Assembly: GCA_000165425.1 (NCBI GenBank)
Contig: CT868053.1
Span: forward strand, 124,001-188,000
Origin: Paramecium tetraurelia
Taxonomy: Eukaryota
Direction of reading: 5' to 3'
DNA length: 64,000 bases
Position numbers and translations under genes: made by a program. Positions 29,057 to 60,872 of this stretch are shown piece after piece. The notes under the pieces are model-generated. The model saw only the letters and a list, made by a program, of their open reading frames with translations, did not search any database and had not been told where the DNA came from. The stretch's first letter is position 1; every line of letters starts with the position of its first letter.

Positions 29057-29850
29057 TCAATTTTAATCCATAAGTTTTTTATAATAGTCTATTGGTTAAT
29101 TATCTAATATTCTCACAAATATTAATGTTTAATCTGCGAAAAGTTCGATTGGGTAAATGGAATCAAGTTTTAAGAAATGTATAATGAAGCATTACAATCT
29201 ACAAAATCTAAGGAAGTTATTACTTAATTGCTTCTAAATTTTAATTTTAAGTAAACCATTCTTGCTAGTAATACAATTTGAAAAAATAAGAATATATGTC
29301 GTAATTAATTTAGTTGGTGGCATCCAATTAAGTTTGCAACTTTTCAAATTTAAGATCTCCTTTTTTAGTATCCCTAAAATAGTTTACTATTTTAGAAAAC
29401 TCAGCAGGAACGGCCTCATAATAGAAAAAGATAATTTACATCTTTTAATTTTTTGCATTTCTCAAATGTCATTTAAATTTCCTTTCTCAAATAATCAGCT
29501 GTATTAGATTTTACATTGGAAAATTGAGTAATTTAATTTAGGTATTCTTTCTCATCTCTAAAGATTTTTTTCAATTGATTCGCCATCCCAGCATATTTAT
29601 CTTTATTTAAGAAATTTGTCCCTTGCAACAATTAGTAGTAATTGTAGCATACGACACAAATCCGAAGTATTTAAAGGTTGTAAAAATTATTGTTATCATC
29701 AACTACTTTTTTGTAGATAGCCTATTCAAGAAAGTAAGACAAATCTAATGACAGCTAACTTCTATAGAGTATGCATTGAAGGAATAGCTCTGGGCTGAAT
29801 TTATTAGTTGATATTTCCTCTAGTTTTATTAGATCAGATTTTTAATTCAT
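29057..29850 (-). CDS. Kinase-less paralogue of the neighbouring kinases' C-terminal domain, with an apparent +1 frameshift near its 3' end
   Basis: Collinear similarity to the tail of 29900-31761; an extra A at 29168-29171 gives TGA at 29163-29165, while homology continues in the shifted frame to 29057. Confidence 0.7.
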
Positions 29851-35700: not shown

Positions 35701-36483
35701 AAATTTCCAAAACCCAATATTAAGTATTTCTTTTAGATTCTCTATTTGATCGAGAATTACTTCACCTATTAATTGTTACCAGATTGCTCCTTCTTTAAGT
35801 TATTGCATCAGATGGATGGAAAATGGTATTTGATTAGTATTGAAGACAAGCAAATTGTATTCACAAAGATTGGAGCAGGACCTTGGACCCATGATAATTT
35901 ATTGTTTGATCAATGTCAAATGAGGATTTGTGAAAATCTTAAATTCATGAAAGAAATCAAGAATGCTGAAGTGAAAACACATGTAAGAGAATTCCACAAC
36001 AGCATGAACAAAATGGCTAAACAGTTCGAACTTGATGTTACCAAATTAGATGTCAGGAGTACCATCATCATATATTAAATAAAAAATGAGCGTTATGCTC
36101 CTCCTGATTCTACGACTCCCAGAATGAATGGATACAAACCAATCATCAGTCCAAGATATATGACAATGAGCGTTAAGAATCCACTTGTAAGTCAACTCAA
36201 TGTGGATGTGAACTCTTTAAATGAGGAGTACAATCCAGAGGAGATTTTTCAAATGGGCGATAATGTTGACGAGTGTCATAGACATGTCAGTTAAACTATG
36301 ATTTTCGTTCTCTCCAAGATCTAGGCTCAAGAGAGTAGGATTGTGTATCAAAATCAGGTTATGCTGGCTTAATTTGTCTTAGATTTGGCTGGGGTTATTA
36401 AGAACTATTCTGACAATTTCTTTTAACAATTAGAGGAGTTATATTCTTTACGCAGTAAACAAAGGGGAGTTAAATAAAAATGA
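32740..36483 (+). CDS. Two-pore channel (TPC)-type 2x6TM cation channel with EF-hand linker and long C-terminal tail
   Basis: S4-I RFSRLIRP, pore-I ATLDFYPDIMIP, S6 PLAVVYEGF, EF-hand-like DSNDAGFL and DKDFNDKI, S4-II, pore-II DFNS..TASSWG. Confidence 0.9.
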
Positions 36484-36505
36484 TAATTAATATATATAAA
36501 TTATA

Positions 36506-36638
36506 TTGTGAGTTCTCTGGGTAGCTTGTTGAATTATTTGAAGAATTCAACAGCGACAAATCAAACATCAAACAATCTCCCATTCCTACCCAATTGTTAT
36601 ATCCATGGATGTACAACAAAACCTCAGGAATGATTAAG
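36506..36638 (+). ncRNA. Candidate two-hairpin H/ACA-type snoRNA
   Basis: Hairpin 36526-36535/36544-36553; H box AAACAA at 36570-36575; second hairpin CATTCCT/AGGAATG; pocket complementary to conserved 18S UGAUUUGUC-UG-GUUA; canonical ACA absent. Confidence 0.55.
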
Positions 36639-36806
36639 TGTTCTCCTTAATTTATTCTTTAATTTCCCTTAAATATTATGCAAATTTTATATGGGTTTTC
36701 ACTCCAATTCAATAATCAGACAGTGTTTGGTCAGATCAAAATGAAATGGCCTTTATCAAAATTACATATATTAAGTAATTGATTATATAATAAAATTTCA
36801 TTCATA

Positions 36807-37927
36807 ATGAAAAGGTCAATTAAGTAGCCTGCTTCTTCCTCCTATCAATTTCTCGATAAGCTAGGTGAAGGGTAATACTAATCATAAAGAAAATAGTGCT
36901 TTCGGTTACATTTGGAAAGTCAAACACATTTCAAGCGGTCAAATATTTGCTTGTAAGCTTGTCAAAAATTCTATGAGGAAGGAAAAAAAATTACTGCAGA
37001 GAGAAATACAAATCTTACAAATCCTTAAGAGCAAGAAAGGTATTTAAATAATAAATACATGAAGGATTTACATAGTTGTTTGCATCTGGGTCTGATTAGC
37101 AAAATACATACTTTGTTATGAATCTGATGGGAGAAAACTTGGAACAGCGTCGCCAAAATTAAGGAAATTTCAATAAAATCTTACCTATTGGATTGGAGAT
37201 CATCAAACTTTTGAAAGAACTCCATTCGTTAGGAGTAATTCATCGAGATATCAAACCAGAGAATTTTGTTATGCAAGATGGTAAAATCAATCTGATTGAT
37301 TTTGGACTTTCGAAAAAATACATTATTGATGGTCATCATATTCATTACAAAGAGAATAAAGGAATGATAGGGACTGCTAGATATGCATCTATAAATGCCT
37401 TAAAAGGCATAGAACAATCCAGAAGAGACGATTTAGAATCCTTGGGATATATGCTCATATATTTGCATCAAGGCAATTTACCTTGGTACTCTATTAGTGA
37501 TCAAGATAAAGAAATCAGGTACTTAAAAATCAAAAAAATGAAAAAAGCTCTAAAAATAGATAAATTTTTTGGTTTGCCAATTTAATTATCAAGTTTTATG
37601 GAATATGCAAAAGGGTTAAAGTTTGATGAAGATCCCAACTATGAGTATTTGATCTCTCTATTCTCTCAAGAGGAAAGCGGAACTCGTCTGGCATTACAAT
37701 ATTTTCAGCCAAAACCTGCTATTAGACTAAAATTTATTTAAATGTAAAGAACGAGTTTTCGTTCTCCTCCTTAGGAAATTAATTCAAGCAGAAAAGCTAG
37801 CTTTGAAGAATCTTCTTCAGCTGGGTCTGACATTCAAGAAGAACTTAAAGAATCCATAAAATTAAAAAATTTTATTGTTGGAATAAAACAACCAGCTGAC
37901 AGTCCAATCTATGTGCAATAGAAGTGA
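36807..37927 (+). CDS. Casein kinase 1 family kinase
   Basis: LGEG|AFG, HRDIKPENF, IDFGLSKKY, GTARYASINA, EQSRRDDLESLGY. Confidence 0.95.
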
Positions 37928-38199
37928 TGCATTAATATACTTCATTTTTATAATTAATAAAATTTCGTTAGGCTCAGCATATTTCTAATGAAAAGTATTC
38001 TATATATAAAAAACCATCCTTCTTATTTTTGTTGTTCTCATAGATGATACCAAAAATTCACTTCTAAAATCAATAGAAATAGTTTATAAAACATGATTAA
38101 AATAAGAATTGCTCTTTAAAAGAACTGCCCGATTTTATTTTTAAATTATTTTTGATTATATATGTGAGAAAAGATCTAAACCTGGATTATTTTTTCTTA

Positions 38200-51428: not shown

Positions 51429-51517
51429 AACTATACTAAAATTAAGAATTCAAAAAGATACTTTAATATTATTAGTGTAATAGTTTATATTTCAATCAAC
51501 AAATAATAATATAACAT

Positions 51518-51590
51518 GGGCTTGTAGCACAATTGGTAGTGCGCCTGACTACGGATCAGGCGGTTGCAGTTTCGAGTACTGCCAAGCTCG
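51518..51590 (+). tRNA. trnR-ACG: tRNA-Arg(ACG)
   Basis: Cloverleaf: acceptor GGGCTTG/CAAGCTC, D arm GCAC/GTGC, anticodon arm CCTGA-CTACGGA-TCAGG, T arm GCAGT-TTCGAGT-ACTGC. Confidence 0.95.
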
Positions 51591-51592
51591 AA

Positions 51593-56306: not shown

Positions 56307-59300
56307 TCAATCTTTATTCTAATTTTATTCATCCTCATCTAACAATCTTGTCAGCTCCAACTTTAATATCTTGTGTGCTATTAAGATGGGCCTAACATTC
56401 TGGTAATCGGGTTTCTAATTGAGAATCCTTTTTTCTAGAATGAACAATATATTGACCCATTCTTAATAAATTTCGGATGTCACAAATGGTTATAGTTGAG
56501 TTAGCAAACCTTAAACTTCAAGCTTATATTAGCTCCACGTTTTCACTAAATTATCAAATATCTATTCCATATTAGCCTCCTTACCAATAAAATCATTGAG
56601 AGAATTTTCAGTAAAGATCTACTAATTGACACAAACTGAAGTGAAACGATTAAATGATAAATTCTTTTCACCTTAGTGAATAATATCCGCTTCTTCTTCA
56701 AATAAATCTAATGCTTCTTAGAAATTAAATTTCTCGAATTCAATGTGTCTGAACAAAGTTAAAAATTCATTATGATTAATCTTTTTGTTACCATCCAAAT
56801 CAGCAGCTTGAAATGCATGAATCACAAATAACTTAGTTCGATGAGTTACATTTCTATATTTATCGATAACCTTTGACATAAATTAATCTAGATCAACAAC
56901 GCCTGATTTATTTTTTGAATCACTTTCCTTAAGATTATCTAAATCATTTCTAAGTTCTTTAATTTCATCCTCAGTTAACTTATTCTCTAAATGTATTTTT
57001 ATATAACTATACAATAATATAATACATATATTTACTCTAAAGCTCTCAAATAAGGAACATAAAATTTAGACTCACTATCTCCTTGTACAATATTAACACC
57101 TAGACTTGTTTGACTGTGTATATATTCCAATCCTGATATCATGAAAGCTGATTCTTCTTGATTGAAATTCAGATGTTCATCATGCAAAAGACATAATAAT
57201 CTAGCGAATACATTCACTCGAAAGATTTAACAAAAGTGAATTACGGATAACAAAAATTATAAGTATTTTTTTTCAGCAACATGTTTAAACCCATATTTGT
57301 TAAGGAAGAAATTGAAAACGAAGATCTACATATCAGCTTCTCCTCCAAAGGATGTTTTTTCTAAATATATTTGACTTATAGTTCTTAAGACGTTCTTAAC
57401 TGGCCAATACGCAACAACCTTCTTGAACAAATGAGATTGCTCTCTTGCTTTAATTGCTAATAACACACCAGGATGCGTCAACCTATCTATTGTTGGTAAC
57501 TATTTCATTTATCTTGTAGCGAAATTCATTCTTAATGCTCTCTATATCTTACCTTTCCTTCTTTTCAGAGCCTCCTGCTTTTTCTCCTCCTTTTCTTTTT
57601 CTTCATCCAAAACATACTCTTCTTCCAAAATTTCCTTGTCATTCTAAATTTTCTTTCTGAATGATTCAAATTCAAATAAGAACTCTTCTGCTATTTAGGT
57701 ATGCGTCTTGAATTAAGTTTTTAAGATATGAAGAGTCAATTTTCTTGCAAATAGTAACACCTGTGTTAAGAGTTCATTTGTTTCATTCATTCTAGCTGTT
57801 GCATTTTAAGCTTTCTACTTTTGTATCTGATAAAGAAGCATCAACATAGTAGTTTATTACTTTGATAAATTGGGTTATATAGAATCAGTTTTTTCATTGA
57901 CTTCAATTATTTGAGTATTATTCTGAGATGAAGTTTGTTCATGCTATTTTGGTTATTATTAAAGTTGCTAGGATGCACTCATCTTCTTTTTCTTTTACCC
58001 CTACTTATCTTTTTCATTCTTCTTTTCTAGATTTTCATTGGCTGGAAAATATCTTTATGACCCCAATTACTAATTACTTTGCTATTATTGTTATTGAATT
58101 TATTGCTTTTAGATTTATTTAGCTGTGTCGCTTTTACAAGCATTTGTTTAAGTGACTTAAGGATTAGCTTATGGAGATAATTTAATTGCTTTTTATGAAG
58201 ATTATTAAGAATTCTATTAAGTATTATTAGAACTAGTTCCTTATTATACTTATTTTATATTTAATAACCTATCTGAACTCTATTTATCAAATTCTCTAAT
58301 CAACTTTTCAGATGTTTCCGATCTTTCAATTTAAAATCTTCGTTCCTAAATATAATCCTGCTTTCTTTTGTTCATTACATCAGGTGACCCTTCATCATTT
58401 TCTGGCACCTCGTATATTAAATCTATTTTGTTAACTCCCCTATTTTCATAATCATGAATTGAAGGCTCATCTTGATGCATGTTCATCTAATCGCATAGCC
58501 CATCCAACCAACTCTATTATTCTAATTGTTGTTTTAGTTCGAATTCTCTGTATGTATTTTCTATCTCCTAGGTGGATAAAAATTTATCATATTAAGGAGA
58601 CATCAATTATAGATCAGTTTGAGTTTCAAGAACACACAGACATTTTTAGAATGTTTACACACCAACACTATGAGAAACAACAGGCAGTTCTTCAATCACA
58701 TCTTTAACAATCATATCTTAATTTTATTCAAATTTTGTCTGTTGATTCATCTCCTTAAGCACTTAAGATAGCGATAGATCTTGTTCCTCTATAGCATCCT
58801 CTGATTTATTAATAGAAGAATGTTTGTTTTGATTCTTCTTGGATAACTGATGCTTCAATTAATCTATCTCCCTTTGTAGATTGCCTATCATATTCGCTGC
58901 ACTCTTTGATATTGTTTCCTATAAATTAATTTTATTCTATAGTTTTTTGATAGTTTATTAATAACTTATACGTTCTGAGTTAATCATATTTTCTTTATAT
59001 TTTAATTGATCCAATTCTTGTGTTAAGATGCTAATTTAGACTCTTGACCGATTTTCTATTTCCTCCTTTTCTTTGGCTTCAAAAATATCTTTTTCAAACA
59101 ATTAGAATTTGAGTGTTCTTTATTCTTATTCTTTTATCATGAAATGTTTATGAAACACTAAAATATATCCTTTAACTAATGAATGAAGGAGTTGTCCTCT
59201 TTCAGCACATTGGTAAGAAACCTATCGAATGATCTCTAATAAACATAGATGTAGAGCTTCAGACAAAGAAATGAGTTTATCTTTGAAATCCTTATTGGAT

Positions 59301-59887: not shown

Positions 59888-60872
59888 TCAATTCTTACCA
59901 TACTTTTGATGGAGAAAATCTTATATCAATAAAATCATGATTGATTGAGGTGCCACTCTAGAAAAATAAACTAATAATCCAACCCATAATCCAACCAGTT
60001 TCTCTCTTTGTATAGATTTTATAAAACAATCTATCACACCTTGGTAGGGCATTGAACCATCTGGCAAGGACTTCATCTTCTGAAGTTTAGTCTTCACATT
60101 GTCAAAAGGCAAAGAAATTATTGAAGAGATGATCCCAGCTCCACATGATGCCCTATATGCTTCATCATTAGATTTACATGATCCTATCGAACGCAGTTTC
60201 ATTTTTAGAATCTTTGAATTGCATACTCATCTACTTGATCTAATCATATGTTGTTAGCTATCCAATTGTTATTGCAACAGCTCTTGTTACAGTCGGCATA
60301 GATCCCTTCCAAAAAGCAATTAGTCCCTCCTCTCGATATATTCTTGTCAAGGCTTCAAATGCATTTTTATAATTCCTTCTTTCTTCAATCGGTAGTGATT
60401 GATCTGCTTAAAATCGGATCAGACACACATCTGTTGGATTACCTACCAAAGCTCCAATAAATCCAGCTAATGAAGATGCCCCTACTTTTTCAAAAAATGT
60501 CAAATCACCTTAGATATATGATGGGGTTTGTTACGTTATTATTGTTTCTTAACCGAATCAGTGATTATCCTGAATATACCAAGACGAGTTGTTGTATATG
60601 TCAGTTGTCTCAATAATGCCGAACCAAGGCTAAATTTAAAATTCTCTCTACCCTGAATAAAACCCCCTTAATCCTTCCTTTTGGAGCATGTCTCTACTCA
60701 TTTAAATGATATTCTTCTTATGACTGAGCACTCCAAGACCCAAACTTTCACTTTAGATTTAGATCCTCACTTTGAGTGTATCAATTGGCATAATAATAGC
60801 AGCAGCCGAGCATCCAGCAATCGCTCCAAATAGAAAAGGCTTAAAATAAGAGGAGTTTTTTGATTCAGCCAT
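59888..60872 (-). CDS. Mitochondrial carrier, 2-oxoglutarate/malate or dicarboxylate type
   Basis: Three PxDxxKxR-type motifs (PIDTLKVR, PTDVCLIR, PFDNVKTK); LLRQLTYTTTRLG; LPIEERRNYKN. Confidence 0.95.

Follow-up and report, generated by a model that had tools for sequence, protein, structure and literature searches.

The spacer between an Ion_trans channel gene and a protein kinase gene of Paramecium tetraurelia contains a short GC-rich segment, 36506-36638, which folds into two hairpins on either strand (positions are those of the window, the whole 64,000-nt stretch of DNA that was analysed). A small-RNA gene of some kind is probably present at this locus. The segment is best explained, with a probability that we put at roughly 0.45, by a minus-strand snoRNA gene of the H/ACA type, about 135 nt long and transcribed independently, extending from about 36638 to about 36504. 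The minus strand is indicated by the promoter-like element, by the ACA box, and by the G.U pairs, and the H/ACA class by the layout of the two hairpins. An earlier note on the same DNA had proposed an unannotated H/ACA-like RNA on the plus strand. The proposal of such an RNA was reasonable in view of the GC island, the two pocket hairpins, and the length of approximately 130 nt; however, the choice of strand was not sustained, since a promoter-like signal and an ACA were found on the minus strand alone and the count of G.U pairs went the same way.

The GC island and its fold

Both neighbouring genes are on the plus strand. The channel gene upstream ends with a TGA stop at 36481-36483, and the product of its open reading frame shared 90% identity with a P. 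tetraurelia EF-hand/Ion_trans protein and 69-71% identity with proteins of P. octaurelia and P. pentaurelia. The protein kinase gene downstream starts with the ATG at 36807, leaving a spacer of 323 nt. Since the untranslated regions of P. tetraurelia are short (means of 44.6 nt for the 3' UTR and 21.7 nt for the 5' UTR; PMC5485702), approximately 250 nt of this spacer should be free, and a gene of about 135 nt would fit there together with its promoter. The GC content of the spacer was distinctly uneven. The segment 36506-36638 formed a sharp island of 36.1% GC, compared to 0% at 36484-36505 and 23.2% at 36639-36806, and the edges of the island matched the feet of both predicted hairpins. A window-wide comparison of intergenic GC by ORF masking was too crude to be informative, since 92% of the window was masked.

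When the spacer was compared with the window by blastn, only AT-rich low-complexity matches were obtained, and a repeat or mobile element was therefore rejected. A C/D-box snoRNA was rejected by eye, as no properly ordered RUGAUGA...CUGA pair was seen on either strand. The candidate is spanned by a 58-aa open frame (table 11), for which no relatives were found in the protein database. When metagenomes were scanned with the alignment of the channel, a single 1022-nt contig of 61% identity was obtained, and it did not include the spacer. The earlier note had named an Rfam scan among its checks; at gathering thresholds over the whole window the candidate was unmatched and a tRNA-Arg was the sole hit, and a permissive scan of 36440-36760 returned noise only (carA, E 9.3), so that no snoRNA family was matched in either scan. 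The tRNA-Arg, with anticodon ACG, is located at 51517-51591 on the plus strand (63.5 bits).

On the plus strand, the 133-nt segment folded into two hairpins with a 6+6 internal loop in each, with an MFE of -27.2 kcal/mol (z -1.89; 8 of 200 shuffles equal or better). On the minus strand, the mirror-image pair of hairpins, again with internal loops, had an MFE of -31.4 kcal/mol (z -1.51; 16 of 200 shuffles equal or better). The predicted hairpins are listed below, each with its own comparison with shuffled sequences.

36509-36570, plus strand: hairpin 1, with the pocket strands UAGC (36522-36525) and GACAAAUCA (36555-36563); z -1.30, 21/200 shuffles
36581-36632, plus strand: hairpin 2, followed by AUU (36633-36635) and UAA (36635-36637); z -2.66, 2/200 shuffles
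36580-36633, minus strand: hairpin A, the complement of plus-strand hairpin 2; z -1.44, 18/200 shuffles
36509-36570, minus strand: hairpin B, the complement of plus-strand hairpin 1; z -2.96, 1/200 shuffles

Hairpin A has a lower stem of 9 bp (two of them G.U), a 5+5 internal loop, and an upper stem of 8-10 bp; hairpin B has a lower stem of 7 bp with one bulge, an internal loop, and an upper stem of 11-13 bp. The structural description given in the earlier note was largely reproduced. The plus-strand MFE fold has both hairpins with their pockets, the 10-bp upper stem of hairpin 1 is formed by 36526-36535 and 36544-36553 (one U.G included), the tail past hairpin 2 reads AUU with no ACA, and the motifs that it had listed (the two pocket strands of hairpin 1, AAACAA at 36570-36575, AUUCCUAC at 36582-36589, and AAACC at 36619-36623) all lie where it had placed them. 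However, its statement that the G.U pairs favour the plus strand was reversed by counting. One of 36 pairs is G.U in the plus-strand MFE fold, versus five of 42 in the minus-strand fold, whose stems are lengthened by these pairs.

A loose architecture descriptor, consisting of two adjacent unbranched pocket hairpins, was then applied to 6386 segments of 150 nt per strand. Three loci were returned on the plus strand (the candidate, 29471-29614, and 37945-38082), and four loci other than the candidate were returned on the minus strand (61717-61580, 49635-49497, 37020-36874, and 29287-29186). The candidate itself was missed in the 150-nt scan of the minus strand, which counts against a minus-strand gene, although its 133-nt fold on that strand does have the architecture. 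The layout of hairpin, hinge, hairpin, and tail with a pocket in each hairpin was found on both strands of the candidate. Among the seven loci returned, the candidate had the lowest energy, -24 to -28 kcal/mol versus -13 to -18.5 kcal/mol for the others.

These observations bear on whether the locus holds an RNA gene at all. The inverted repeats could have arisen by chance or could have a role other than in RNA, as a coding remnant or as a terminator or promoter structure, and the promoter-like match described below would then be fortuitous. The z scores of the whole folds, only -1.5 to -1.9, agree with this reading, as do the six other loci in the window that pass the same descriptor and the lack of an Rfam match. 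However, an island bounded by the feet of the hairpins is unexpected in a spacer of 0-23% GC, the candidate is clearly the lowest in energy of the seven loci, and two adjacent hairpins each reached 1-2 of 200 shuffles on one or the other strand. Furthermore, the island is not repeated within the window, and its open frame is without relatives. We therefore regard the absence of an RNA gene as rather unlikely. Structure alone places the candidate moderately above chance, which is suggestive but not decisive. For the minus-strand gene in particular, the island with its edges at the hairpin feet, the -31.4 kcal/mol fold, and the z score of hairpin B are in favour, whereas the scores of hairpin A and of the whole fold are against.

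The promoter-like element and the boxes

The sequence signals associated with the two folds are as follows.

36698-36689, minus strand: PSE/USE-like element AAACCCATAT, agreeing with the ciliate consensus AAACCCATAA at 9 of 10 positions, with one mismatch
36578-36573, minus strand: hinge motif AGAUUG at the H-box position, departing from ANANNA at the last base, 15 nt past the upper stem of hairpin A
36509-36507, minus strand: ACA box, directly after hairpin B and 16 nt past its upper stem
36498-36500 and 36476-36480, minus strand: T runs of three and five, the latter 27-31 nt past the ACA; in AT-rich DNA such runs carry little weight
36570-36575, plus strand: H box AAACAA, an exact ANANNA, 16 nt past the upper stem of hairpin 1

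The element AAACCCATAT, whose extended minus-strand context at 36698-36682 reads AAACCCATATAAAATTT, ends 51 nt upstream of 36638, the foot of the first minus-strand hairpin. According to the portion of PMC3273799 covered, the Tetrahymena USE AAACCCATAA is located 53-179 bp upstream of H/ACA snoRNAs, occurs at 22 of the 27 intergenic snoRNA genes, and does not differ from the element of Paramecium ncRNA genes. In Oxytricha, small-RNA 5' ends are preceded at 50-60 nt by the PSE TgACCCATnAAnnnTTA, and the Paramecium consensus is described as essentially identical (PMC3177221). Measured to the putative 5' end of the RNA, the spacing of 51 nt on the minus strand agrees with the about 50-60 nt (or up to 179 nt) expected of such genes; on the plus strand, no PSE/USE-like motif was found upstream of the candidate, in the channel coding sequence.

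To judge how readily such an element arises, its matches were counted over the 128,000 strand-positions of the window. With at most one mismatch, 11 PSE-like matches were observed versus 9.8 expected; exact AACCCATA was seen three times versus 2.07 expected, and ACCCATNWANNNTT twice versus 0.59 expected. The first two counts, being near expectation, agree with a match that is fortuitous. However, for any one strand the chance of a match with at most one mismatch in the interval 53-179 nt upstream is only about 1%, and for exact AACCCATA about 0.3%, and the absence of an RNA gene is made less likely by a PSE-like motif and an ACA that share a strand and both lie where they would be expected. 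The mismatch in the element counts against the minus-strand gene, and so does the finding of AAACCCATAT at 57287-57296 on the plus strand, where the same 9-mer lies inside a long minus-strand open frame, that is, in a coding region. Another PSE-like sequence, CAACCCATAA, was noticed at 59980-59989 on the plus strand, upstream of a GC-richer, coding-looking stretch at about 60034-60150 in which Rfam gave noise only.

Downstream of the candidate, the T runs resemble those of the Tetrahymena monocistronic snoRNA genes, which have T3-13 within 35 bp downstream in the part of PMC3273799 covered. The word GTTTGAT occurs twice in the minus-strand hinge and hairpin B region at 36556-36573 (GTTTGATGTTTGATTTG), and it is reminiscent of GTTTGATTA, the core of the 3' box of Oxytricha small RNAs. 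This likeness was treated as a coincidence, because the Paramecium 3' box differs according to the Oxytricha paper (PMC3177221).

A perfect pair of H and ACA boxes was present on neither strand. The minus strand has AGAUUG and ACA, and the plus strand has AAACAA and AUU or UAA; the loss of one canonical box on each strand would be in line with there being no RNA gene. In the portion of PMC3273799 covered, the Tetrahymena H/ACA RNAs have two hairpins and lengths of 124-136 nt, and nine of them have AUA, UAA, UCA, or AAA instead of ACA. The hinge of the minus strand is inexact, which weakens the case for a gene there. However, two of the six Tetrahymena hinges printed in the supplement of PMC3273799 (HACA1 and HACA5) also have no exact ANANNA by our reading, the nearest words being AUAGUG and AAAUUG, which suggests that a departure from ANANNA need not exclude a ciliate RNA from the class. 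The distance from the top of the pocket to the box, counted on the predicted folds, was compatible with the 14-16 nt of H/ACA RNAs on both strands. On the plus strand, AAACAA lies at a distance of 16 nt, and the tail words AUU and UAA lie at 13 and 15 nt, respectively. Since the strands mirror each other, this spacing cannot discriminate between them.

The plus-strand alternative is an H/ACA snoRNA at about 36506-36640, released from the channel 3' UTR or from a read-through transcript, whose hairpin 1 would guide pseudouridylation of the 18S helix-34 U in UGAUUUGUC-U-GGUUA. It has the exact H box at the right spacing, and both hairpin 2 and the whole fold stand out from shuffled sequences as given above. 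Its UAA at 36635-36637 is a variant found in one case in Tetrahymena, in the covered portion of PMC3273799, and some Tetrahymena H/ACA RNAs are in the sense orientation within or just past annotated genes. On the other hand, its tail has neither ACA nor AUA nor AAA, the rare UAA being two bases on from AUU, and it lacks an upstream PSE/USE and a G.U bias towards its strand. Moreover, the RNA would start 23-26 nt past the stop codon, inside a typical 3' UTR of 45 nt (PMC5485702). Together with the pairing results below, these points make a plus-strand snoRNA unlikely. It is more doubtful still that both strands give H/ACA-type RNAs, or that a real plus-strand RNA is cut from the 3' end of the channel mRNA.

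For the minus-strand H/ACA gene, we propose that transcription, directed by the PSE/USE at 36698-36689, would begin at the foot of hairpin A, about 50-60 nt past the element. The predicted RNA would consist of hairpin A, the hinge AGAUUG, hairpin B, the ACA, and three more bases, with a 3' end that we infer at about 36504. Such an RNA would be expected to assemble with Cbf5, Nop10, Gar1, and Nhp2, and one or both of its internal loops may place a uridine of rRNA or of another stable RNA for pseudouridylation. Ciliate PSEs are also located upstream of snRNA, RNase P, telomerase, SRP, and Arisong RNA genes (PMC3177221). A PSE-driven minus-strand small RNA could accordingly be an orphan or structural ncRNA that resembles the H/ACA layout and is not a pseudouridylation guide. 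The imperfect H box would suit such an RNA, and so would the search described below, in which no credible target was found in the proxy rDNA. However, the length, the two pocket hairpins, and the pocket-to-box spacings of 15-16 nt all fit H/ACA, and no Rfam family of another class was matched; we consider a non-guide RNA quite improbable.

Pairing of the pockets with ribosomal RNA

The rRNA proxies were the rDNAs of other eukaryotes, obtained from contaminant contigs in prokaryote assemblies with a 21-nt pattern scan. The eukaryotic 18S motif is present in at least 38 contigs that are filed under MAGs or isolates of bacteria or archaea, one of them from a rumen MAG. All nine of the pattern-matched contigs that were checked with Rfam contained eukaryotic SSU rRNA, most of them with adjacent LSU and 5.8S; one of the nine has an 18S of 1629 nt, and one has group I introns. 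The eukaryotic 18S in these prokaryote assemblies is contamination.

The 18S motif UGAUUUGUCUGGUUA to which the earlier note had fitted the hairpin 1 pocket does occur in eukaryotic 18S, in the context ...GGCCGUUCUUAGUUGGUGGAGUGAUUUGUCUGGUUAAUUCCG...; its presence in all four eukaryotic loci examined is not an independent count, because these loci were retrieved with that motif. The plus-strand pocket pairs with both sides of the target U as 9+4 (one G.U), and this satisfies the length criteria applied in Tetrahymena, a minimum of 9 nt overall and of 3 on each side (supplement of PMC3273799). To this extent the proposed pairing was borne out. However, it forms only when the guide base C36554, which sits between the upper stem of hairpin 1 and GACAAAUCA, is skipped and left unpaired, and when 300 shuffled pockets were allowed an equally free register against a single sequence each of SSU, LSU, and 5.8S, 29 of them scored as well. 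In another register, a second match to a conserved site was obtained, 5+5, near the decoding centre, which shows the ease with which such pairings arise. In addition, two of the nine paired positions are lower case, that is, variable, in the Rfam SSU consensus (GUGAucUGUc); the 9-mer is therefore not guaranteed in Paramecium 18S.

To place the target in human numbering, Um1326, Gm1328, ac4C1337, psi1347, psi1367, and Am1383 from the covered part of the PMC6182160 table were fitted as an offset to the 18S loci. A single offset fitted all six bases in three of the four loci, in which the target U corresponds to human U1364; the fourth has a group I intron there. The earlier note had identified the target as yeast U1290/human psi1347, but by this fit the target U has psi1347, the second U in AGUUGG, 17 nt to its 5' side and psi1367 3 nt to its 3' side. 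No modification is given for human U1364 in the portion of the PMC6182160 table covered, and no H/ACA target at 17S U126x-129x was found in the Tetrahymena supplement (PMC3273799), both of which count against the plus-strand snoRNA. If the plus-strand RNA were real, the uridine of 18S helix 34 that corresponds to human U1364 would be converted by its hairpin 1 to a pseudouridine specific to the lineage. This site, with the conserved psi1367 3 nt away, belongs to the head of the small subunit on its decoding side and appears unmodified in human as far as the covered portion of the table goes.

The best matches of the remaining pockets to the proxy rDNA were equalled by 213, 142, and 7 of 300 shuffles. 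The value of 142/300 belongs to minus-strand hairpin A, and the 7/300 case, also on the minus strand, concerns an LSU site that is not conserved and was seen in one of the proxy rDNAs. For neither minus-strand pocket was a convincing conserved rRNA target found in the proxy rDNA of other eukaryotes, and complementarity at chance level is what would be seen if there were no RNA gene. The pocket words of either strand were absent from the guide sequences and the snoGPS output in the Tetrahymena supplement; two 6-mer matches occurred there, one in an rRNA diagram and one in a primer. Against the minus-strand gene, then, are the lack of a convincing rRNA target, of an Rfam family, and of a Tetrahymena guide with the pocket words.

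Comparison with known RNAs

The human SNORA4 (ACA4) and yeast snR83, which we take to be the guides for 18S psi1347 and psi1290, respectively, share with the plus-strand pocket of the candidate the helix 33-34 region of 18S. However, the sites differ, and since the pocket faces U1364 and not psi1347, the candidate is not an equivalent guide.

The candidate also shares the words AUUCCUA and AAACC with U17/snR30 (SNORA73), an RNA of the H/ACA class. In U17/snR30, m1 is AUAUUCCUA with single-base variants, and m2 is AAACCAU in 14 of 14 species including Tetrahymena (PMC7601244). The U17 RNAs are 203-606 nt long, with about 240 nt in Tetrahymena (PMC7601244). An assignment to U17/snR30 was rejected. 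The m2 position of hairpin 2 reads AAACCUC and lies at the top of the pocket, and m1 is matched at 7 of 9 bases (ccAUUCCUA), of which AUUCCU is paired with AGGAAU in the lower stem and not in an open pocket. Furthermore, the candidate is 133 nt long and has pockets in both hairpins, whereas the 5' hairpin of U17 is without a usable pocket. The claims of a guide for a conserved 18S pseudouridine and of a U17/snR30 hybrid, both made in the earlier note, are not supported for this candidate.

The candidate is at most a further member of a well-known RNA class. If real, it would add one more H/ACA guide RNA, an ordinary gene type, to the Paramecium catalogue, which is useful for annotation and alters no concept. 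It would also be a worked example of a promoter element settling the strand of a near-palindromic snoRNA locus. For P. tetraurelia, Chen et al. reportedly described about 400 ncRNA genes in 2009, almost all of which are intergenic, and the present locus may already be among them. Compared with the Tetrahymena H/ACA set, the candidate differs in having no sequence relative in the Tetrahymena supplement. Nevertheless, it resembles the ciliate H/ACA snoRNAs, both the Tetrahymena TtnuHACA RNAs and the Paramecium snoRNA genes, in its length of about 130 nt, its hairpin-hinge-hairpin-tail layout, its pockets, and its intergenic place, and on the minus strand also in the USE/PSE about 50-60 nt upstream, the downstream T runs, and the ACA tail.
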